From an uncultured Actinomycetota bacterium (lineage in GTDB: Bacteria > Actinomycetota > Actinomycetes > JBEVHX01), in assembly GCA_963836025.1 (NCBI GenBank), contig CAWIIE010000015.1, positions 99,676-163,675 of the forward strand: a DNA stretch of 64,000 nucleotides. The letters are read 5' to 3'. The notes under the pieces were generated by a model, which was not told where the DNA came from, ran no database searches, and saw nothing but the letters and a program-made list of their open reading frames with translations. Below are positions 3,981 through 28,841 of this stretch, in pieces; the stretch's first letter is position 1, and every line of letters starts with the position of its first letter. A program made the position numbers and the translations under genes.

Positions 3981-5111
3981 GAGGTGGCTACTTTCAGGAG
4001 GCCGCGAAGGCGGGTCAGGTCGAACTCGTTGTCTGTCGCGCAGCGCGCGAGCCGTCGACACCAGCTCGCGCAGGGCCTCGGGCCCGGGGGTGAGGCCGAG
4101 GAAGTCCTTGGTGGCCGGCGGTCCCCACTGCGCCAGCCCGGATGCCGTCATCGGTGACCAGCCCGGCTCCAGGGTGCAGTCGAACAGGTCACCGTCGGCG
4201 AAGTGCTCGACCAGGAGGCCGTCCGGGTCGCGCCAGTAGTCGAAGATCTGACTGCCCTCGATGTGCCGGCCGATCCCCCAGGAGTGCTGGAAGCCCTGCT
4301 CGCGGAGGTACTCCCCGCCCGCCGCCAAGGCGTCGAGATCTCCGACCTGGTAGGCCGAGTGCACGTACCGGTTCCGCGGACCGAGCGTCATCGCCAAGGT
4401 GTGGTGGTCGGTCGGGGTCGCGCCACGGTCACAGCGGATGAAGCTCATCGTGGGCCCCCGTTCACGCTGGCCCTCGTAGTACTTGAAGTCGCTGACGATG
4501 AGACCGAGGTGTTCCAGGTACCAGTTCAGGGTCTCGAGGTACGTCGTGGTCTGGAGCACCACGTGGCCCAGTCGCTGGATCCTCGCGGGCTCACGAGGCG
4601 GGCGCTGCGTGCCGTTCGTCCGGGGAGTTTCGTGACCGAAGTTGAACACCTGCGTCGGCTGGGGCGGCAGGGATGCGAGCTCGTGGGTGTCGGCGACGAC
4701 CCGGACCTTGACCCCGCTCGGGTCGGTCAGGTCCACGGTGAGCCCGCCGATGCTCTCCGGCAGCTTCTCGACCTTCGCCCCGGTGGCGTTGGCCAGCCGC
4801 ACCACGTCGCCGGGATCCGCGGCCCGGAAGGCCGCACCCAGGTACCTCGACCGCGGTCCACGGCGCACGATCACGCAGGGCGCGCCGGCGTCGGTCCCGC
4901 GCAGCTGGAGCTCGTCCGCCGTCCGGCTGACGGTCGTGAACCCGAACGCATGCGCGAACCGCTCCGAGGCCGCCAGGTCGGGCTTGCAGAACTCGAGCCA
5001 GGCCAGGTCGAGCACCTTGATGACGGGGTTCTTCGCACGACCCGGGTGCTCGCCGCCCAGCGCACCCTGCTCGCTGTGCAGGTCGTTGTGGGTCCCATGG
5101 TGACTGGTCAT
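3977..5111 (-). CDS. Two-domain VOC family extradiol-type dioxygenase (frameshift ~4030)
   Basis: RLGHVVL, DHHTLA, HSAY and WGIGRHIEGSQIFDYWRDPDG..VEH metal-ligand pattern. Confidence 0.88.
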
Positions 5112-5132
5112 CTCTGCTCCTCAGTGCGTTAC

Positions 5133-5190
5133 TGACGATATCGTCACTCACGAACCTATGCTCAGTCAAGCGCAAATGAGGAAATCGTCA
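5133..5190. promoter_or_regulatory. Paired TetR-type operators with divergent promoter
   Basis: Perfect palindrome TGACGATATCGTCA (5133-5146) and TGAGGAAATCGTCA (5177-5190), 44 bp apart; TTGACT on the minus strand between them. Confidence 0.85.
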
Positions 5191-5252
5191 TTTCTGACTG
5201 AACCGCGCTAGGATGGATGTGCACAACCCGCCGAGGACGCCGAGGAGTGGTC

Positions 5253-5903
5253 GTGAGCAACGCAGCAACTCAGGAGCCCAACCGACTGGACCGCCGCAAG
5301 GCCCGGACCCGGGCAGCTCTCATCCGGGCTGCGCAGACGCTCATCGCCCAAGGCAGGACGAACGTGCCGATCCTGGAGATCACCCAGGCCGCCGACGTCG
5401 GGATGGGTTCCTTCTACAACCACTTCGAGACCAAGGAACAGTTGTTCGAAGCTGCTGTCGAGGCAGTGATGGACGGCTACGGTCAGCTGCTCGACGACCT
5501 GACCAGAGGCATCGAGGACCCCGCAGAGGTGTTCGCCTGCAGCTTCCGGCTCACCGGACGGCTTCAACGCAGCGAGCCGGAGCTCAACCGGATCTTCCTC
5601 AACAACGTGCTCCGGCTGCTCAGCGCCGACAGCGGCCTGGCTCCACGTGCCCGGCGCGACATCAAGGCCGCCGTGGATGCCGGCCGCTTCGACGTCGAGG
5701 ACCTCGACGTCGCGGTCACGATGACTGCCGGAGCCCTCATCGCCCTAGGCCAGCTGCTGCACGACCAGCCGGAGCGCGATGTCGAGGAGACCACCGACCG
5801 GATGACCGAAGAGCTTCTGCGCATGTTCGGCGTGCGGGCCGCGGCGGCTCGTCGCATCTGCAGGCTGCCGCTACCCGACCTCGCGGCCCCCACGGCGTCA
5901 TGA
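5253..5903 (+). CDS. TetR/AcrR family regulator (paralog 1)
   Basis: RRKARTRAALIRAA...ITQAADVGMGSFYNHFETKEQL HTH; GAGGAG upstream; divergent from the VOC operon. Confidence 0.92.
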   Translation: MSNAATQEPNRLDRRKARTRAALIRAAQTLIAQGRTNVPILEITQAADVGMGSFYNHFETKEQLFEAAVEAVMDGYGQLLDDLTRGIEDPAEVFACSFRLTGRLQRSEPELNRIFLNNVLRLLSADSGLAPRARRDIKAAVDAGRFDVEDLDVAVTMTAGALIALGQLLHDQPERDVEETTDRMTEELLRMFGVRAAAARRICRLPLPDLAAPTAS

Positions 5904-6030
5904 CGTCACGGTTGTGCTGCCGACCAACTTCATCGGCTCCGCAAGGGGCGTGGGCGGACGTGTAGGCATTCGCGTGCTTGAGGGGCATCGGGGGCAATCC
6001 AGACGCTCATCGTTGAGGAGGGACATCGCC

Positions 6031-7101
6031 GTGTCATCGCCTTCAGATGATGAGAACGATCCATGGATTCGGTACGTCGATGTCGACGGTCTGCGGTTGC
6101 GGACTTCCGTGCGGGGAAGCGGGACACCGCTGCTGCTGCTCACCGGCATCGGGGCGAGCCTGGAACTGTCCGTTCCCATCGAAGACGCACTCAACCCTCA
6201 CGGTGTGCAGACCCTCACCGTGGACGCGCCCGGCACCGGGAAGTCCTCGCATTATCGGCGGCCACGCAGGATGCCCGGGTTCGCGCTCACGGTGGAGCGG
6301 ATGCTGGACGCGCTCGGTTACGACCGGGTCGACGTTCTCGGCGTGTCCTTCGGCGGTGTCCTCGCCCAGCAGCTCGCCCACCGGGCCCCCCAGCGCATAC
6401 GCCGGCTCGTTCTCGCCTCCACTGCGGCCGGCGTGCCGTTCCTCGGCGGCGTTCCAGGGTCACCCCTGCCCCTGCTCGCACTTGCGACCCCGCGCCGCTA
6501 CCAATCGCCGGACTACTACCGACGAATCGCCGGAACGTTGTACGGCGGGCAGGCCCGCCACGACCCCGAGGGGCTGCTGCACGGTTCGATTGCGCGGTTC
6601 TCCGAGGCCCCATCCCTGCGGGGCTACCTGTACCAGCTCTACGCGATCAGCTTCTGGACCGGCCTCCCGTGGCTATGGCGGCTGCGCCAGCCCACCCTGG
6701 TGCTGATCGGCGACGACGACCCGATCGTTCCCGTGGTCAATGGCAGGATTCTCACCTGGCTCATCCCGGATGCCCGGCTGGAGATCATCCGGGGCGGGGG
6801 GCACCTGTTCCCCTTGGAGCGGCCCACCGAGATCGCCGCGCTCGTCGCCGAGTTCCTTCACCGCGACGACAGTGGTCAACCGGCCGCCGCGGGGGGTGCC
6901 AGCAGCGCGCAGAGTCCCGCCAACGGTCCACCCCACGCTCACTCACTAACGTTCCGAGCTCGAGGATTCTCGCTGACGGTCCACCCTGGAGGGTTCGTCG
7001 ACCCGATAGCCCAGCCACGGCGCCGGACGCCATGTTCGATCATGGCAGCGCGGACGACGAGGGGTCAACCCGCCGCGAGGCAAGCGACGGACGTGGGTTA
7101 G
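6031..7101 (+). CDS. phaZ: Alpha/beta hydrolase, PHA depolymerase (PhaZ)-like; true 3' end may be near 6870
   Basis: GAGGAGG RBS; GIGASLE, GVSFGG nucleophile, LIGDDDPIVP and GGHLF; the tail after ~6870 looks like read-through. Confidence 0.75.
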   Translation: MSSPSDDENDPWIRYVDVDGLRLRTSVRGSGTPLLLLTGIGASLELSVPIEDALNPHGVQTLTVDAPGTGKSSHYRRPRRMPGFALTVERMLDALGYDRVDVLGVSFGGVLAQQLAHRAPQRIRRLVLASTAAGVPFLGGVPGSPLPLLALATPRRYQSPDYYRRIAGTLYGGQARHDPEGLLHGSIARFSEAPSLRGYLYQLYAISFWTGLPWLWRLRQPTLVLIGDDDPIVPVVNGRILTWLIPDARLEIIRGGGHLFPLERPTEIAALVAEFLHRDDSGQPAAAGGASSAQSPANGPPHAHSLTFRARGFSLTVHPGGFVDPIAQPRRRTPCSIMAARTTRGQPAARQATDVG

Positions 7102-7322: not shown

Positions 7323-7374
7323 TGAGGATTTCGTCACGGAGACTTGCTTCTCCGCATCACTGACGATATCGTCA
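7323..7374 (+). promoter_or_regulatory. Paired operators and promoter upstream of the Ala-rich protein
   Basis: TGAGGATTTCGTCA (7323-7336) and TGACGATATCGTCA (7361-7374); TTGCTT-N17-TATCGT overlaps the second site. Confidence 0.8.
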
Positions 7375-14781: not shown

Positions 14782-14866
14782 TGACGACTCTTTCATCTAG
14801 CCACTCACTGAGGATTTCGTCATCTGCTACTTGACGATGGTAGCATCATGAGTGACAATATCATCA
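14782..14866 (+). promoter_or_regulatory. phaC promoter with operators
   Basis: TGAGGATTTCGTCA (14809-14822), TTGACG-N17-GACAAT and TGACAATATCATCA (14853-14866); a weaker third site at 14782. Confidence 0.85.
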
Positions 14867-14884
14867 TTCTCAGAGGAGCGACGG

Positions 14885-16653
14885 ATGACTGATCACCGGG
14901 ACGCCCATAAGGACCGCGAGCGCGACGCAACTTCGCATTCGGCGCTGCAGCGGCAGATGGGCGAAAGCACAAGTGTGGACGACCGGTCGGGGGGACGGGC
15001 CGAGCCGTTCGACGTCCTGCTCGCCGCCGCCGCCTTGGGCACGCCTCGCCGCTTCTTTCCCGGCGTAGCCGGGGCCAAGCTGGCTTGGGGGCTGGCTCGC
15101 CGGCCAGGGACCGTGGCCCGGCGTGGATGGGCACTGACAGCGGAACTCGGCCGAATCACCGCTGGCACCTCGACGATCGAGCCGTCACCGCGCGACCGAC
15201 GTTTCACCGACCCCGCCTGGGCCGGCAATCCGCTGTTGCACCGCCTTGCCCAGGCCTATCTGGCGGGGAGTGAATCAGCGCAGATCCTGCTCGAGGATGC
15301 GGACCTGGACTGGGCATCGGCGCAGCGGATGGGGTTCATCACGGAGAACCTCGTCGAGGCAGTGGCGCCGTCGAACTTCCCGTTGACCAACCCGGAGGCA
15401 CTCAAGGCGGCGATTGATACCGGCGGGCGCAACTTCGTCCGCGGGGCCGTCAACTTCCTCAGTGATATGTCGGCGCCGCCGAGGATTCCCAGCATGGTGG
15501 ACTCGGCGCCCTACCGGCTGGGCGAGAACATCGCAGCGACTCCCGGAGCGGTGGTGCTCCGGACCGAGATGTTCGAACTCCTCCAGTACAAGCCGGCAAC
15601 GGACACCGTACTCAGCACCCCGCTGCTGATCGTTCCGCCGATGATCAACAAGTTCTACGCGGTCGACCTCGCACCGAGCCGCAGCATGGTGGAGTTCCTC
15701 GTGCAGCAGGGCGTGCAGGTGTTCCTGGTGTCGTGGCGCAACCCGGACGCACGGCACCGCGACTGGGGGATGGACCGGTATGCCCAGGCCATCCTCGACG
15801 CTCTGGACGCGGTCGGGCGGATCACGGGCGAAGAGCGGGCCGTACTCTATGGTGCTTGCTCCGGCGGCATCCTCGCCGCCATGACGGCTGCGCACCTGAG
15901 CGCCAGCGGACAGGCCGACCGGCTAGCCGGGCTGACGCTGGTCGTGACCGTCCTCGACCAGTCCCGAGCTGGCCTGGCCAGCTCCGTCGTAGACCGGCGC
16001 ACGGCGGAAGCGGCGGCCGCGGTGTCGGCTCGGAGGGGCTACCTGGACGGACGGACCCTCGCCGAGGTGTTCGCCTGGCTGCGGCCCGGAGATCTGATCT
16101 GGAACTACTGGGTGAACAACTACCTGCTCGGCCGGCAACCGCCGGCGTTCGACATCCTGTTCTGGAACAGCGATGTGACCAGGATGCCAGCGCGGCTGCA
16201 CCGCGACTTCCTCGAGATGTCGGTCGAGAACTCCCTCGTCAAGCAGGGTGAGGCACAACTGCTGGGAACACCCGTGGACCTCAGCTCGATCAAGACCGAT
16301 TCCTATGTGCTGGCCGGCTCGCGGACCATCTGTGCGACTGGGAGTCCTGCTACCGCACCGCGCACCTGCTCGGCGGCCAGACCCGGTTCGTTCTCTCCAC
16401 CAGCGGGCACATCGCCGCGATCGTCAACCCGCCGGGCAACCCCAAGGCGAAGTACCAGGTGTCCGAGCAGAACCCGGAGAACCCGCAGCGCTTCCTGAAG
16501 GAGGCGCAGCAGATGGACGGGACCTGGTGGCACGACTACGCCGATTGGCTCAGGGAACGTTGCGGGCCCGAGATCGCCGCCCCCAGCGAGCTGGGCGGCG
16601 GCGGCCTGGAACCCCTTGCCGACGCACCTGGCACCTACGTCCTCGAGAAGTAA
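14885..16653 (+). CDS. phaC: PHA synthase, class II-like (frameshift ~16320)
   Basis: DRRFTDPAW, PPMINKFY, SWRNP, GACSGG lipase box, WLRPGDLIWNYWVNNYLLG; then DHLCDW, SGHIA, GTWW and APGTYV in a shifted frame; GAGGAG RBS. Confidence 0.93.
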
Positions 16654-16817
16654 GAGCTTCGAGAGACTGACGACATCGGGCAAGCCGCGGACGGACCACC
16701 TCCTGATCGCGAGCAACTGCTCGACATGCCTCTGACGGAGAGCACCCGATCGCCGGCCCGGGGAACCCGGCAGCAGCGGGCTACAACCCCGCTCACACAC
16801 AAACAGGAGGTAGGGAC

Positions 16818-17559
16818 ATGGCAGACATGACCGGACAGGTGGCGCTCGTCACCGGCGGCGTGCGGGGCATCGGTCTGGCCATCTGCGAACGGCTCGCCCG
16901 CCGCGGCGTGGTCGTCGCAGCCGGCTACTCGCGCGATAAGGAGGCCGCCGACCAGTTTCTCGGCGCATTCCAGGACCGCGGCGGCACGCGTCCACCAAGG
17001 GAACATCGGTTCTCCCGAGGACTGCGAGCGAGTCATCCAGGAGGTCCTTGACCAACACGGGAGGCTCGACATCCTCGTCAACAATGCCGGCATCACCGTC
17101 GACAAGACGGTGCGGCGGATGACGCCTGAGGAATGGGATCGCGTCGTGCAGGTCAATTTGTCGGGTGCGTTCTACCTGTCACGGGCGATCCTGCAGCACA
17201 TGCTCGACCGGTCCTATGGCCGCATCATCAACATCAGCTCGGTGATCGGCTCGTCGGGCAACATCGGCCAGGCCAATTACGCCGCTGCGAAGTCCGGCAT
17301 GTTTGGCCTCACCATGAGCCTCGCACTGGAAACCGCCCGCAACGGCATCACCGTCAACGCCGTGACGCCGGGCGTCATCACCACCGACATGACCGCGTCG
17401 GTGCCGGAGGAGGCAGCGGCGAAGGTACTCGCCAAGATCCCCGTGGGCCGTCTCGGCGAGCCAGAAGAGGTCGCGCGAGTTGTCGAATTCCTCGCCTCCC
17501 CGGCCTCGAGCTACATCACCGGCCAGGTTTACGCCGTCAATGGCGGCTTGTACATGTAG
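16818..17559 (+). CDS. phaB: Acetoacetyl-CoA / 3-oxoacyl reductase (frameshift ~16985)
   Basis: TGGVRGIG, NNAGIT, GNIGQANYAAAKSG and VNGGLYM; AGGAGG RBS; directly after phaC. Confidence 0.85.
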
Positions 17560-18081
17560 CAGCCCATGCATCGGCAGGGCATCCGTGATCGGAGCGCACT
17601 GTAGCGCGCTTCCCCCGCCGCCAACGCCGCGCCCGGTCACGGCGCTCGCCGGTCCCGAGGCGGATCGCGCGACCATGTCTCGCCGGCGCCAACCCTGAGC
17701 CAGGCCGACGGCAATCGCCTCGGCGTTGCGCGCCAAGTGTGTCCAGGCTTCTGGCCGACAATCACCGCGATCCGTCCCGCCGACACCGACGGAGACCGGA
17801 CCGAGCCCGATCCGGCCCGGACCCCTGCGCCGACCGATCCTGCCGTAGCCGGACTACGTCAGCGGCGATGCGGCGGTCATCGCCCCGTTCATCAGGTCGT
17901 TCGCCGCGGCGCTCGGCAGGCGGCACCTGCAAGCCACATCCTCTTCCACAGCTGTAGCAAGGGGCCTATCGAGCCTGCGACTCGGTCCGCGCCCCACTCG
18001 CGAGGTCGTCGACGGGCCGGGCCGGTCACGGGTGAGTCGGGCACGCGCATCTTGGTGCCACTCGGCCGTGCCGCAGCACGG

Positions 18082-18110
18082 AAGAGCCGCCGGTGCTGGC
18101 GGCGGCTCTT
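18082..18110 (-). terminator. Hairpin downstream of the micro-ORF
   Basis: Perfect 11-bp stem AAGAGCCGCCG-N7-CGGCGGCTCTT, 9 nt past the stop codon; weak U-tract. Confidence 0.7.
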
Positions 18111-18119
18111 TGGCGGATC

Positions 18120-18212
18120 TCAGTAGGGCAGGGTCTTGCCGGACGGGGTACGAAGGTCGACCGGAGCCGGACCCGAGCGCGGGACTTGTTTCGCGATCTG
18201 GATTTGCTTCAC
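18120..18212 (-). CDS. 30-aa micropeptide MKQIQIAKQVPRSGPAPVDLRTPSGKTLPY
   Basis: GTG start 9 nt after GGAGGAG; upstream promoter and operator; downstream hairpin; shorter than any ORF in the supplied track. Confidence 0.7.
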   Translation of the reverse strand: MKQIQIAKQVPRSGPAPVDLRTPSGKTLPY

Positions 18213-18276
18213 CGACGCTCACTCCTCCGGTCCGAACGTCAACTGCAACGAGCCCGACTGCGAAATGGATCTTAAC

Positions 18277-18318
18277 TGATGATTTCATCAATGTAGAGAT
18301 TATGATCACTCCTGTCAA
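18277..18318 (-). promoter_or_regulatory. Sigma70-type promoter with operator
   Basis: Minus strand TTGACA-N17-TACATT, directly followed by TGATGAAATCATCA (18277-18290). Confidence 0.85.
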
Positions 18319-18830
18319 GCCCTCGATAAGATTCGTGTCACGCTTTCTCGGTTGTCGCCTGGGCGCTCGGCGGGCTCGGCCTCGCCCGAGCTGTCGCCGT
18401 GGCCGGCACGCAGCGGCTGGCTCACCCCCGGCGCGGGCACGGTGGGCCGACTACGGGCGCATCGGGCTGCTCGAGTTCGCGGCGGTGTGATCGGCCTCGC
18501 CGCTGGGGGACTCGCGCCCGGCGGCGCGGCTCTCGCCGCCGCCGGCCTCCATCTCCTGCGGGGCGGCGCAATCGCGAGCCCATCTAAACGGGCGACGGTG
18601 CGGGCGGACGGGAGGGCTGCCGCGCAGGTTCCTGGCGCCGGATCCACCCGGTGCCAGGCCTGCGGGCGCGTCCCGGGCGGCAGCACACCCCCGCCAAACG
18701 CGGCTCCCATGGCGGTGACGGGCCCGGCGACGTCACCTGGTAGGAGCGCCCTGCCCAAACGCGGAGCTCGGCGACGGGCTGACGCCGTCCCAGGGGAGCT
18801 GTGGGCCGGTGCGGCGACCGGCGGTGCAGG

Positions 18831-19502
18831 TCAGCGGGGTGCGGGCAGCTTCGCGACCGGCAGCGGGGCGTGCGCCAGCCCGCGCGCCTCATCGAAGGGC
18901 ACGCCGAGCATGCGCAGCAGCTGTTCGACCAGTTGATCACAGGCCGCGTCATCGACCAGGTCGGGATCCGTCAGCGCCATCTGCAGCGTGGCCAGCACCG
19001 CACCGGAGCTGGCGGCTCGGACTAACCGCGGCTCGGCCTCGAGGAACCGGCCCGATGCCATGCCCGCCCGGATATCGCGCAGCAAGCGCGGCGCCACCCC
19101 GCCCTCGGACTCCATGTAGTGCATCCCGTGCCGGACGAGCACCGCGGAAATCTGCGGGCGACTGCGACACAGCCGTAGCGTCAGCCGTGTCGACTGGGCG
19201 TAGGCCATGGCGGGGTCCTGGACGTCCATGCTGAGCCGGTCGAACAACTCCCCCAGCTCCTCCAGCACATCGTCGACCGCCGCTTCGAAGAGCTCAGTCT
19301 TGGTGGAGAAGTGGTTGTAGAACGAGCCGAACCCGACGTCGGCAGCATCGGTGATCTCCTGGATGCTGGCCTGCGTGGCGGTGCCGGCCGCGAGCATGAC
19401 CCGTGCGGCGTCGATCAGCATTTGCCGTGTCCGCGCCTTGCGCCGCTCGCCCCGGGAGAGCGGTGCCGCTTCCCCGGCTGCCGGCTCCGACCCGGCGGTC
19501 AT
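18831..19502 (-). CDS. TetR/AcrR family regulator (paralog 3)
   Basis: RRKARTRQMLIDAA...ITDAADVGFGSFYNHFSTKTELFEAAV; alignable with the 5253 gene throughout. Confidence 0.92.
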   Translation of the reverse strand: MTAGSEPAAGEAAPLSRGERRKARTRQMLIDAARVMLAAGTATQASIQEITDAADVGFGSFYNHFSTKTELFEAAVDDVLEELGELFDRLSMDVQDPAMAYAQSTRLTLRLCRSRPQISAVLVRHGMHYMESEGGVAPRLLRDIRAGMASGRFLEAEPRLVRAASSGAVLATLQMALTDPDLVDDAACDQLVEQLLRMLGVPFDEARGLAHAPLPVAKLPAPR

Positions 19503-19560
19503 CACGTCAGCACCCTTGGGCGGAAACGCTTCCGATGGCTTCACTGTGACCCGGCTCTCC

Positions 19561-19620
19561 TGAGGATTGACGAGGAGTTCTCACATAGATGATGTCATCA
19601 TCTCTGATCAGCGTCCTCAT
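19561..19620. promoter_or_regulatory. Degenerate operator sites upstream of TetR paralog 3
   Basis: AGATGATGTCATCA (19587-19600) plus weaker half-sites; TTGACG at 19567. Confidence 0.5.
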
Positions 19621-20109
19621 CGCCAGTAGCTCGGGGATGAGCCTCGCCACCAACACCTCCCCGGTGCGCCCGGTGAACCGTCACATGAACCTGCACAGCG
19701 AGCGAGGTGCAGACGAACCCCGGTCGCAGCGCCGAGCAAGCCGAGCACGCCGCCGCAGATGCACGTGGTGAAGGTGCCCTGGGCCGTGAGGATCGCGTCG
19801 GTCCGCGCGAAGGCGCACGCGACGAAGGTGACCGGGATCAGGAAAATGCGAGCAGGATGACTGTCGGGACGAGGTTGGGGCTTCCGATCGCGAAGATGAC
19901 CGGCCCGGTCTCTACTGCATCGCCCCGGGTTTGCTACAGGTCGGTTGCGCCGCGAGCGGCTGCTCGACGGCCCGTTGAGTCGACGGAAGTATCCGGCTTC
20001 GACCTCCGCAGGGGTCCGATAGAACACCGTGGTCCAGCCCTGCGTGGTCATGTCCAGCCGATGTTGCCCCCGGTGCCCGTCACCGGCACCGAGCCGCCGA
20101 GATCGGCGG

Positions 20110-20265
20110 TCGCAGTCGGCGATGAAGCCTGTGGCGCGTTCGGTTTTGCCGCTGTGCCCGGCGACGATCGCGGCGCCCTGGCCGGCGAAGCTGTGCCAGA
20201 TGGCCGCACCGATGCCGCGGGTGCCCCCGGTCACCAGCGCGACTCGCCCGGTGAGTTTGGTGCCT
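20110..20265 (-). pseudogene. N-terminal remnant of a second PhaB/FabG-like SDR
   Basis: TKLTGRVALVTGGTRGIGAAI...AGQGAAIVAGHSG, after which similarity is lost. Confidence 0.7.
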
Positions 20266-20328
20266 ACGATCGGTGTGGGAGTAGGCCTCGTGTCGGCGGC
20301 AGCGACTCTCGCGAGAAGGTGGGGTGTG

Positions 20329-21516
20329 ATGACGACCGACAACATCGGCCGGGGCCGAGGCACCGACTACTACTTGATCGCTGAGCAGCTGACCGAGTCC
20401 GAGATGGGCTATCTGAGGCGCGCTCAGCAGTTCGTCGACAACGACGTGCTGCCGGTGATCAACGGCTACTGGGAGCGGGCCGAGTTCCCGTTCGAGCTGG
20501 TCGAGAAGCTCGCCAAGCTGGACATCGTCGGCGACGGGATCGAGGGGTACGGCTGTCCGCCGATGAGCCCGATCGCCGCGGGTCTGGTGAACATGGAGCT
20601 GCACCGCGGTGACGGGAGCCTGGGCACGTTCCATGGCGTGCACTGCGGTCTGGCGATGAGGTCGATCTCAATGCTGGGGTCGGAGGAGCAGAAGCAGCGC
20701 TGGCTGCCGCCGATGGCCCGGTTGGAGAAGATCGGTGCGTTCGCGCTGACCGAACCGGCGCACGGGTCGGACTCGATCGCCCTGGAGTCGTCGGCGCGAC
20801 GCGAGGGTGACGAGTGGGTGCTGAACGGCCACAAGCGGTGGATCGGCAACGGTTCGATCGCCGATGTCGTGGTCGTGTGGGCCCGCGACCAGGAGGACGG
20901 TCAGGTCAAAGGGTTCCTGGTCGAGAAGGGCACACCGGGCTACGAGCCGACGGTGATCGAGGGCAAGGTGGCGCTGCGCTCGGTCTGGAACGCGGACATC
21001 GTCATCAGCGACTGCCGGGTTCCCGAGGCGAACCGGCTGGTCGACGCTCTCTCGTTTAAGGACACCGCGGCCGTCCTGGCCGGCACGCGCAACACCGTGG
21101 CATGGGCATCGCTTGGGCACGCCGTGGCCGCATACGAGATCGCGCTCACGTATGCGAAGCAGCGGCAGCAGTTCGGCAAGCCGTTGGTTGGTTTCCAGCT
21201 GGTCCAGGACAAGCTGGTCGCGATGCTGTGCGAAGTGACCGCGATGCAGCTGTACTGCCTGCGCCTCGGGCGACTGATCGAGGATGGCCGGTTCACCGAC
21301 ACCATCGCCGCGCTGGCCAAACTGAACAACACGGTGAAGGCCCGCCAGGTGTGCGCCATGGCCAGGGAGATCCTCGGCGGGAACGGCATCCTGCTCGATT
21401 ACCATGTCGTGCGCCACATGGCCGACATGGAGGCGCTGTACACCTACGAGGGGACGGCCGAGATTCAGACGTTGATCGTCGGGCGCGACATCACCGGTGT
21501 TGGAGCCTTTGCGTAG
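20329..21516 (+). CDS. Acyl-CoA dehydrogenase (glutaryl-CoA dehydrogenase-like clade)
   Basis: FALTEPAHGSD, LNGHKRWIGNG, RQQFGKPL, ILGGNG and TYEGT. Confidence 0.92.
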   Translation: MTTDNIGRGRGTDYYLIAEQLTESEMGYLRRAQQFVDNDVLPVINGYWERAEFPFELVEKLAKLDIVGDGIEGYGCPPMSPIAAGLVNMELHRGDGSLGTFHGVHCGLAMRSISMLGSEEQKQRWLPPMARLEKIGAFALTEPAHGSDSIALESSARREGDEWVLNGHKRWIGNGSIADVVVVWARDQEDGQVKGFLVEKGTPGYEPTVIEGKVALRSVWNADIVISDCRVPEANRLVDALSFKDTAAVLAGTRNTVAWASLGHAVAAYEIALTYAKQRQQFGKPLVGFQLVQDKLVAMLCEVTAMQLYCLRLGRLIEDGRFTDTIAALAKLNNTVKARQVCAMAREILGGNGILLDYHVVRHMADMEALYTYEGTAEIQTLIVGRDITGVGAFA

Positions 21517-28754: not shown

Positions 28755-28841
28755 TGACGATTGTCTTCATTGGAGGAGGTGACTGAGGATTCCGTCATCT
28801 GCCTCTTGACGACGATAGCGTCATGGGTGACGATATAGTCA
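28755..28841 (+). promoter_or_regulatory. Promoter with operators, homologous to the phaC promoter
   Basis: TGAGGATTCCGTCA (28784-28797), TTGACG-N17-GACGAT and TGACGATATAGTCA (28828-28841); 44-bp spacing. Confidence 0.85.

Follow-up and report, generated by a model that had tools for sequence, protein, structure and literature searches.

A Conserved Actinomycetota Micropeptide Family with One Member Behind a Putatively TetR-Controlled Promoter

The 64,000-nt window analysed here, a stretch of the genome of an uncultured Actinomycetota bacterium, holds a compact expression cassette that encodes a peptide of 30 residues. All coordinates are those of the window, and the cassette is read on its minus strand. 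The open reading frame (ORF; 18212 to 18120) is almost certainly a real coding gene, and it appears to be translated and to be a stand-alone member of a genuine, widespread micropeptide family. Its promoter is probably controlled by the product of an adjacent TetR-family gene, as suggested by the distribution of a shared operator motif. The best overall explanation, offered tentatively and with rather less than even confidence, is that of a ligand-inducible, stand-alone docking micropeptide behind a TetR-controlled promoter.

The micropeptide family and its reading frame

An earlier note, made from the sequence alone, had proposed that the ORF encodes a real small protein and had named a search for homologous ORFs as a check. 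When 401 genomes of the class were searched at the protein level by translation, dozens of small-ORF matches spanning query residues 1 or 2 to 30 were returned, often several per genome. The pattern by which most members were recovered constrains the first and second codon positions of the C-terminal tail, so codon statistics for the tail would be circular, and the N-terminal part was examined instead. Across 34 disjoint member pairs, differences in the N-terminal part were distributed over codon positions 1, 2 and 3 as 55/53/121, whereas the 45-nt flanks of the same pairs were flat and far more diverged (179/176/181 upstream and 273/260/262 downstream). This frame-biased pattern between flat, diverged flanks indicates that the conserved unit is the reading frame and not the RNA. 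The codon-position result and the full-length match to a large conserved peptide family bear out the small-protein claim.

Members of the family are 29 to 34 residues long and follow the consensus MKQxQIx[KR]...[LV]DLRTPSG[RK]xLP[FYW]-stop, that is, an M-K/R-Q-x-Q-I start, a variable Arg/Pro-rich middle and a near-invariant tail that abuts the stop codon. An alignment of 109 sequences shows no variation at D19, R21, P23, G25 and P29, and conservation above 90% at M1 and L28; the window peptide carries all seven. It has K26 in place of R, as do other members (e.g., P0010, P0014, P0067 and P0121). With 30 codons, an end in VDLRTPSGKTLPY directly before TGA, a KQIQI sequence after the GTG start and a ribosome-binding site, the window copy shows the length, tail and N-terminal M-[KR]-Q-x-Q-I pattern of the family, and it matches the family profile at 55.9 bits (E = 2.4e-14, one genome). 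Among 138 distinct members extracted, 104 start with ATG and 34 with GTG, 101 are 30 or 31 residues long, and 124 have a Shine-Dalgarno-like core 4 to 20 nt upstream.

A 22-member profile searched against 1.84 billion proteins clustered at 50% identity retrieved 539 representatives at E <= 1e-3, of which 24 also passed E <= 1e-10. All of the 150 top-scoring representatives have 29 to 79 residues, and the match ends at the last residue in 141 and two residues short of it in 9; no fusion to a larger protein is therefore seen among them. At E <= 1e-4, with at most 20 candidates scored per genome, the profile was positive in 78 of the 401 genomes (a tally in which G024 and G371 are unpublished), in 63 of the 314 high-quality genomes and in 40 of 174 genera, with one to eight copies per positive genome. 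At least 119 stretches matched a stringent degenerate DNA pattern that covers the tail and stop codon, against a chance expectation of about 0.002 by our own arithmetic at uniform base composition. The matches listed all belong to Actinomycetota and include Streptomyces, Kitasatospora, Streptacidiphilus, Kribbella, Nonomuraea, Streptosporangium, Microbispora, Actinomadura, Thermomonospora, Planomonospora, Herbidospora, Sporichthya, Actinospica, Jatrophihabitantaceae, Jiangellaceae and uncultured Actinomycetota. Cultured carriers among them are Microbispora rosea ATCC 12950, Thermomonospora echinospora DSM 43163, Streptomyces californicus NRRL B-2098 and Kribbella.

The source genome (3.28 Mb, 69% complete, 20 contigs) holds three family copies, all of them isolated units. 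The second lies on contig 16 (G000:C16:13486-13575, plus strand; also L101:7987-8076). The third lies on contig 15 outside the window (G000:C15:22397-22486, minus strand; also L307:3898-3987), where it runs opposite to the plus-strand genes on either side and has a long perfect inverted repeat, or hairpin, after it. The single same-genus genome, itself 69% complete, yielded no family copy by profile.

The family appears to be undescribed as a recognized entity in the libraries and literature searched. For five peptides, Pfam and NCBIfam returned no family at E <= 10, and the ESM Atlas gave only unnamed "hypothetical protein" clusters. Database members carry the same label, among them Microbispora rosea SIS15794.1 and a protein from a Frankiaceae metagenome-assembled genome (MAG), and the cassette thus adds one more copy to a family present in databases as scattered hypothetical proteins. 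The window peptide itself is absent from a collection of 15 billion proteins in which the contig 16 paralogue is present. A tblastn search of plasmid and phage collections found no match, with the qualification that low-complexity filtering may hide such Pro-rich peptides. No paper came up in a full-text literature search for the motif string, and among the papers listed on Streptomyces small ORFs and ribosome profiling, titles and opening lines of abstracts tie none to the family; supplementary tables of such work might list members. The family is rated as lying outside known kinds because it did not show the defining features of any known class tested.

Cassette architecture and predicted TetR control

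The elements of the cassette and of its putative regulator are the following:

18318-18313, minus strand: -35 hexamer TTGACA (direct reading and consensus scan)
Minus strand: spacer of 17 nt between TTGACA and TACATT (direct reading)
18295-18290, minus strand: -10 hexamer TACATT (direct reading and consensus scan)
18290-18277: operator-like palindrome TGATGAAATCATCA, 14 bp, sharing one base with the -10 hexamer and overlapping the likely transcription start
18278-18289: operator core GATGAAATCATC, inside the palindrome at the peptide promoter
18213-18283, minus strand: 5' leader of about 70 nt, its start point placed from the -10 position
18228-18222, minus strand: Shine-Dalgarno sequence GGAGGAG, 9-nt spacer to the GTG
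18212-18120, minus strand: micropeptide ORF of 30 codons, GTG at 18212 and TGA at 18122-18120
18120-18212, minus strand: micropeptide product M/VKQIQIAKQVPRSGPAPVDLRTPSGKTLPY (translation)
18110-18082, minus strand: hairpin with arms AAGAGCCGCCG / CGGCGGCTCTT, perfect 11-bp stem and 7-nt loop
18066-18081, minus strand: second small stem-loop of 6 bp, directly after the first hairpin
18831-19544, minus strand: TetR-family regulator gene (TetR_N and TetR_C_40), upstream of the peptide gene on the same strand
19588-19599: second operator core copy GATGATGTCATC, within AGATGATGTCATCATCT and 44 nt ahead of the start of the TetR ORF

Direct reading found the promoter, the GGAGGAG, the GTG-started ORF and the perfect 11-bp hairpin where the earlier note had placed them. 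Two of its details need adjustment. The palindrome at the -10 element is present, but the "regulon operator" of which it was called a copy lumps together two half-site classes, and the leader, given as about 65 nt, comes to about 70 nt if transcription starts, as inferred here, about 7 nt past the -10. In a consensus scan of 16500 to 20500, the cassette promoter was the sole sigma-70-like site, agreeing at 10 of 12 positions (shuffles, mean 0.2). The 11-bp hairpin begins 10 nt past the stop codon and is probably a terminator; it has no T-run, and no terminator was called by the scan of 16500 to 20500. The hairpin region including the second stem folds at -31.7 kcal/mol (z = -3.74), as well as which only 1 of 200 shuffles folds.

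The cassette lies in a local trough of GC content (0.44 to 0.50, versus 0.68 for the whole window). On one side, the convergent phaB-like gene ends at 17559, leaving about 520 nt without coding signal before the hairpin. Codon periodicity, Pfam domains in long ORFs and Rfam matches are all absent from the roughly 0.5 kb on each side of the cassette, and no notable repeats were found there. Since the flanks show no coding signal, domains or meaningful repeats, the cassette is an isolated unit with the TetR gene on one side and the convergent phaB-like gene on the other, in agreement with the earlier description of the product as monocistronic. These flanks (17560-18080 and 18320-18830) are 70 to 82% GC, and this amount of non-coding DNA is unusual for an actinomycete. 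They have only two weak matches elsewhere in the genome (70 to 74% identity over 79 to 157 query bases). They may represent decayed genes; a tblastx search for remnant genes yielded low-complexity noise only.

With up to three mismatches allowed, the palindrome has 16 strand-wise matches in the window versus 1.19 expected. The "regulon operator" resolves into class A (half-site GACGA) and class B (half-site GATGA). Within the window, class B occurs only at the peptide promoter (18278-18289) and upstream of the TetR ORF (19588-19599). The class B core (GATGAnnTCATC / GATGANNTCATC) has six occurrences in the 3.28-Mb genome, two of which are the peptide promoter and the TetR gene's own upstream region, while the reversed control has none. 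Class A consists of a perfect or near-perfect TGACGATATCGTCA paired with TGAGGAwwTCGTCA 38 to 44 nt away. A different regulator is likely for class A because its half-site is GACGA, whereas the sites at the TetR and peptide genes carry GATGA.

The operator was followed through 80 loci of TetR homologues (41 to 90% identity), with the operator tally covering 76 of them. The core flanks the homologue in 21 of the 76, lying 0 to 350 nt upstream in 15 and within about 550 nt downstream in 7; elsewhere in these loci there are 12 core sites in 524 kb. In the seven downstream cases, the core coincides with, or lies just past, the probable -10 element of a promoter organized like that of the window. 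When these promoters and that of the window are aligned, TGATGAnnTCATCA is invariant in all eight and the -35 reads TTGACA or TGGACA in seven (GGGGGT in locus L030). The window's TACATT aligns with TACAGT in L004, L005 and L013, and L005 and L013 have the identical 14-mer TGATGAAATCATCA on the downstream side of their TetR homologue genes. The conserved operator-promoter modules downstream of the regulator gene lie at L004:4930-5040, L005:4750-4835, L013:4760-4850 and, in L020, L024 and L054, around 4840-5000.

Judged by eye from first residues, this promoter drives a short-chain dehydrogenase/reductase (SDR)-like gene in L004, a different one in L005 and L013, and in L020, L024 and L054 a gene for a membrane protein. 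Because the driven gene differs between loci, the regulator-operator-promoter module is conserved while its cargo is swapped, the cargo here being the micropeptide. The window copy therefore has what a TetR-repressed effector gene would have, an adjacent TetR gene with a predicted operator over the promoter. The earlier proposal of TetR repression gains from the rarity of the core in the genome, its presence upstream of the TetR gene and its conservation beside homologues, and TetR control of the peptide promoter is thus considered likely.

The class A sites occur as operator pairs at four promoters elsewhere in the window, the third directly in front of phaC:

5133/5177 (region 5133-5190): class A operator pair
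7323/7361 (region 7323-7374): class A operator pair
14809/14853 (region 14809-14866): class A operator pair directly in front of phaC
28784/28828 (region 28784-28841): class A operator pair

On the far side of the TetR gene lies an acyl-CoA dehydrogenase gene, transcribed away from the regulator gene; its real start is probably near 20330, because the first domain of the ORF begins at residue 128. Between the two, a minus-strand ORF (19617-20363) matches the first 44 positions of a short-chain dehydrogenase model at a sub-cut-off E = 1.1e-4 and looks like a gene remnant.

Genomic neighbourhood of the family

The setting of the cassette inside a polyhydroxyalkanoate (PHA) locus had invited the suggestion that the peptide modulates an enzyme or the PHA granule. 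This link was abandoned, as no family peptide was found within 5 kb in 80 loci of PhaC homologues (799 kb). Since there is none at these loci and none in the 80 TetR loci, the position of the peptide inside the PHA locus is regarded as incidental. In locus L003, which holds the closest relative of the TetR protein (90% identity), the interval between the TetR and PAP2 genes lacks both phaCB and the peptide, whereas the equivalent interval of the window contains phaC, phaB and the peptide cassette; the L003 interval (L003:4663-7301) is occupied by a 485-residue ORF on the opposite strand. Both PHA genes of the window are frame-broken. The PhaC ORF (14852-16498) ends in about 70 junk-like residues past the hydrolase domain, and the phaB-like SDR is split between different frames, with adh_short positions 1-47 at 16818-17051 and positions 91-235 at 17110-17559. 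They are either pseudogenes or products of single-base indel errors in a long-read MAG.

No constant partner gene accompanies the family. Around 137 members, the window's excluded, SpoIIE-type phosphatases form the largest cluster of neighbours (14 members), ahead of DUF5999 proteins (12) and Ser/Thr kinase-WD40 proteins (11); further clusters are Usp, MEDS/anti-sigma-like kinases and MT0933-like proteins. Such clusters are partly lineage synteny, and these gene types are abundant in the genomes concerned anyway. DUF5999 was set aside as a universal partner: it stands downstream of 12 members of one lineage and was not found in the 69%-complete source genome, a blank that is weak evidence because the control search also found none in 14 control genomes.

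Among 129 members with a called downstream neighbour, the next gene lies on the same strand in 62 (median gap 47 nt) and is convergent in 67 (median gap 35 nt); the same-strand gaps are lower bounds, since genes were called as the longest ORF. No common function links the 46 close same-strand genes downstream, which include DUF5999 (12), metK (5), phosphoenolpyruvate (PEP)-synthase-like (3), DUF1707 (3) and GT2 (2) genes, along with two-component systems, LysR, FHA, HAD and monooxygenase genes. In Nonomuraea, a family peptide directly precedes the S-adenosylmethionine synthetase gene metK, with a gap of 10 nt in L143 (4900-4938, then 4949-6136), and in some Streptomyces another paralogue lies 27 to 31 nt before a PEP-synthase-like gene. 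These cases (L143, L137, L134, L144 and L198; L124, L167 and L112) are natural test cases for a role in cis.

Two further candidate traits were rejected. A SigB/SigF-type GGGTAY promoter, suggested by six Nonomuraea members, occurred 6 times versus 8.6 in shuffles and had no -35 partner, and terminator hairpins were unenriched across the family (mean -19.8 kcal/mol versus -19.3 for shuffles).

Proposed function, alternatives and known systems

The AlphaFold2 model of the peptide has a mean predicted local distance difference test score of 77 and a predicted template modelling score of 0.16, with no secondary structure and no fold, and the peptide is accordingly predicted to be extended and unfolded. 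The family averages 20.7% Arg, 19.1% Pro and a net charge of +6.5; the window copy has a net charge of +4 and 5 Pro. Cys occurs in 4 of 138 members, and a signal peptide is absent. An unfolded 30-mer with a near-invariant 12-residue tail and a free aromatic carboxy-terminus favours a ligand-inducible micropeptide acting in trans. In the proposed mechanism, the predicted TetR operator covers the -10 and likely start of a sigma-70-type promoter, with the regulator encoded 0.5 kb upstream, so that the peptide would probably be made only once a ligand releases the repressor. The ligand may be an acyl-CoA-type metabolite, judging solely from the acyl-CoA dehydrogenase gene beyond the regulator gene. 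The invariant tail, perhaps with a short N-terminal strand, would then dock on a highly conserved cell component, for which the most attractive guess, given the basic charge, is a nucleic-acid machine such as the ribosome. Paralogues would place the same effector under different regulators. Such a trans-acting docking role is put forward with hesitation, as a possibility somewhat short of an even chance.

Several observations weigh against this picture. No family peptide lies beside a TetR homologue in any of the 80 loci, those of the closest homologues included, and the TetR-peptide pairing is consequently seen in the source genome only. Binding of the TetR protein is inferred from motif distribution, and the translated, stand-alone status of the gene is likewise read from sequence. 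The 62 members that precede a same-strand gene at operon spacing fit a cis-acting upstream ORF as well or better, and invariant residues directly before the stop codon, combined with a tight length, are the hallmark of stop-codon arrest peptides. Neighbouring genes in the assembly have broken frames, so single-base errors within the cassette are possible, although the peptide ORF itself aligns gap-free.

A cis-acting translational sensor accommodates some of these points directly; it is the main rival, rather unlikely but deserving of serious weight. The nascent tail would stall its own ribosome from within the exit tunnel at the stop codon, perhaps upon a small molecule or translation stress, and would control downstream initiation or, in the window, formation of the hairpin, which at 10 nt after the TGA is close enough to be affected by a ribosome terminating there. 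The stop codon directly follows the invariant block, the prevailing length of 30 to 31 residues is about the capacity of the ribosomal exit tunnel, and the unrelated functions of the same-strand downstream genes are what would be expected of a portable control module. However, more than half of the members with a called neighbour have a convergent gene downstream, and the three copies of the source genome have nothing co-directional to regulate. The lack of hairpin enrichment across the family, a conserved N-terminal MKQxQI without an obvious stalling role and the absence of bias in the nucleotide that follows the stop codon (C 63, G 45, A 19, T 10) also speak against stalling.

Two of the earlier suggestions fared less well than the docking peptide. 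A precursor of a modified or exported peptide, such as a ribosomally synthesized and post-translationally modified peptide (RiPP) or a signal, with its maturation enzymes encoded at other sites in the genome, would suit the small size, the several precursor-like paralogues per genome and the conserved tail, which resembles cofactor-type precursors, and one member does have a B12-radical-SAM gene as a neighbour (L164) and another an ATP-grasp ligase gene (L173). This reading is nevertheless very improbable: there is no maturase, whether a radical SAM, YcaO, lanthipeptide synthetase, ATP-grasp, P450 or similar enzyme, in the window's neighbourhood and none recurs beside the 137 members, neither a conserved leader nor a cofactor-type core beside an enzyme was found, a signal peptide is lacking and Cys is rare, and a variable N-terminus with an invariant C-terminus reverses the usual conserved leader and variable core. 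Least probable of all is that the roughly 200-nt RNA is the product, whether as a small RNA or by antisense read-through into phaB, with the ORF incidental or tolerated. The compact cassette, strong 3' hairpin and convergence on phaB would suit an RNA, but conservation tracks the reading frame between diverged flanks, the cassette DNA is unconserved outside the source genome (a single spurious 47-nt GC-rich match, in the unpublished G031, among 40 relatives), Rfam has no match at E <= 1, and the PhaC-homologue loci lack the peptide. RNA as the primary function is thus already largely refuted.

A broader and more speculative proposal, which we regard as improbable at present, is that the family represents a new kind of micropeptide, directed at the ribosome, in mycelial and soil actinomycetes, acting either by binding in trans or as a portable arrest ORF. 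In the former case, endogenous Arg/Pro-rich peptides would bind the translation machinery, as a self-directed counterpart of proline-rich antimicrobial peptides or as condition-specific micro-subunits resembling bS22; in the latter, the invariant 12-residue tail would arrest termination and gate the gene that follows, such as metK or the genes for PEP synthase or two-component systems. The paralogues would each answer to a regulator of their own, which in the window would be a metabolite-sensing TetR protein. The last 12 residues are near-unchanged across Streptomyces, Nonomuraea, Kribbella, Frankia-like and uncultured soil lineages and must therefore touch an equally conserved component. About one in five of the genomes sampled from the class carries the family, often as several copies under different regulation and in some genera directly before central genes such as metK, and the window illustrates how a TetR operator-promoter module can swap its cargo gene between relatives. 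Actinomycetes supply most antibiotics, and an unrecognized, widespread regulatory peptide or translational module is worth knowing in such organisms for that reason.

The logic proposed for the window has a parallel in Pseudomonas aeruginosa, where the TetR-family repressor NalC silences armR in the PA3720-armR operon until it is freed by a ligand, and the anti-repressor ArmR acts on MexR (PMC3290565). By analogy, a ligand-released TetR repressor, an operator at the promoter and a micropeptide effector acting in trans would be common to both systems. ArmR, at 53 residues, is longer, has its gene in second place in an operon of two, is narrowly confined to Pseudomonas and has a known partner, whereas the family described here is multi-copy and widespread, and its other members are not tied to TetR regulators.

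Arrest leaders such as TnaC and SpeFL have 24 to 34 codons and critical residues at a fixed distance from the stop, and they act inside the exit tunnel. The family resembles them in that its invariant tail always abuts the stop codon and in that members are often the first cistron before another gene, a resemblance only. Leaders of this type always precede the operon that they regulate, however, whereas the window copy and 67 of the 129 members have no co-directional downstream gene, and the family shares no motif similarity with them; stalling here would be by analogy alone.

Oncocin, Bac7 and apidaecin are proline-rich antimicrobial peptides of insects and mammals that are cut from precursors and secreted for host defence, and the string RPRPPR is known from oncocin-type peptides, which bind the ribosomal tunnel. 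The family is likewise Arg/Pro-rich, basic and predicted to be extended, and RPRPPR occurs in many Streptosporangiales members. In contrast, the peptides described here would be cytoplasmic bacterial products without a signal sequence, their Pro/Arg stretch is variable and weak in the window copy, and the invariant tail has no counterpart in the antimicrobial peptides.

The tiny actinobacterial ribosomal proteins bS22 and bL37 are single-copy and constitutive. Their size of 24 to 33 residues, strongly basic and extended character, restriction to a lineage and long omission from annotation are all echoed by the family. We know of no sequence similarity between the two groups, and the family differs in having one to eight differently wired copies per genome.

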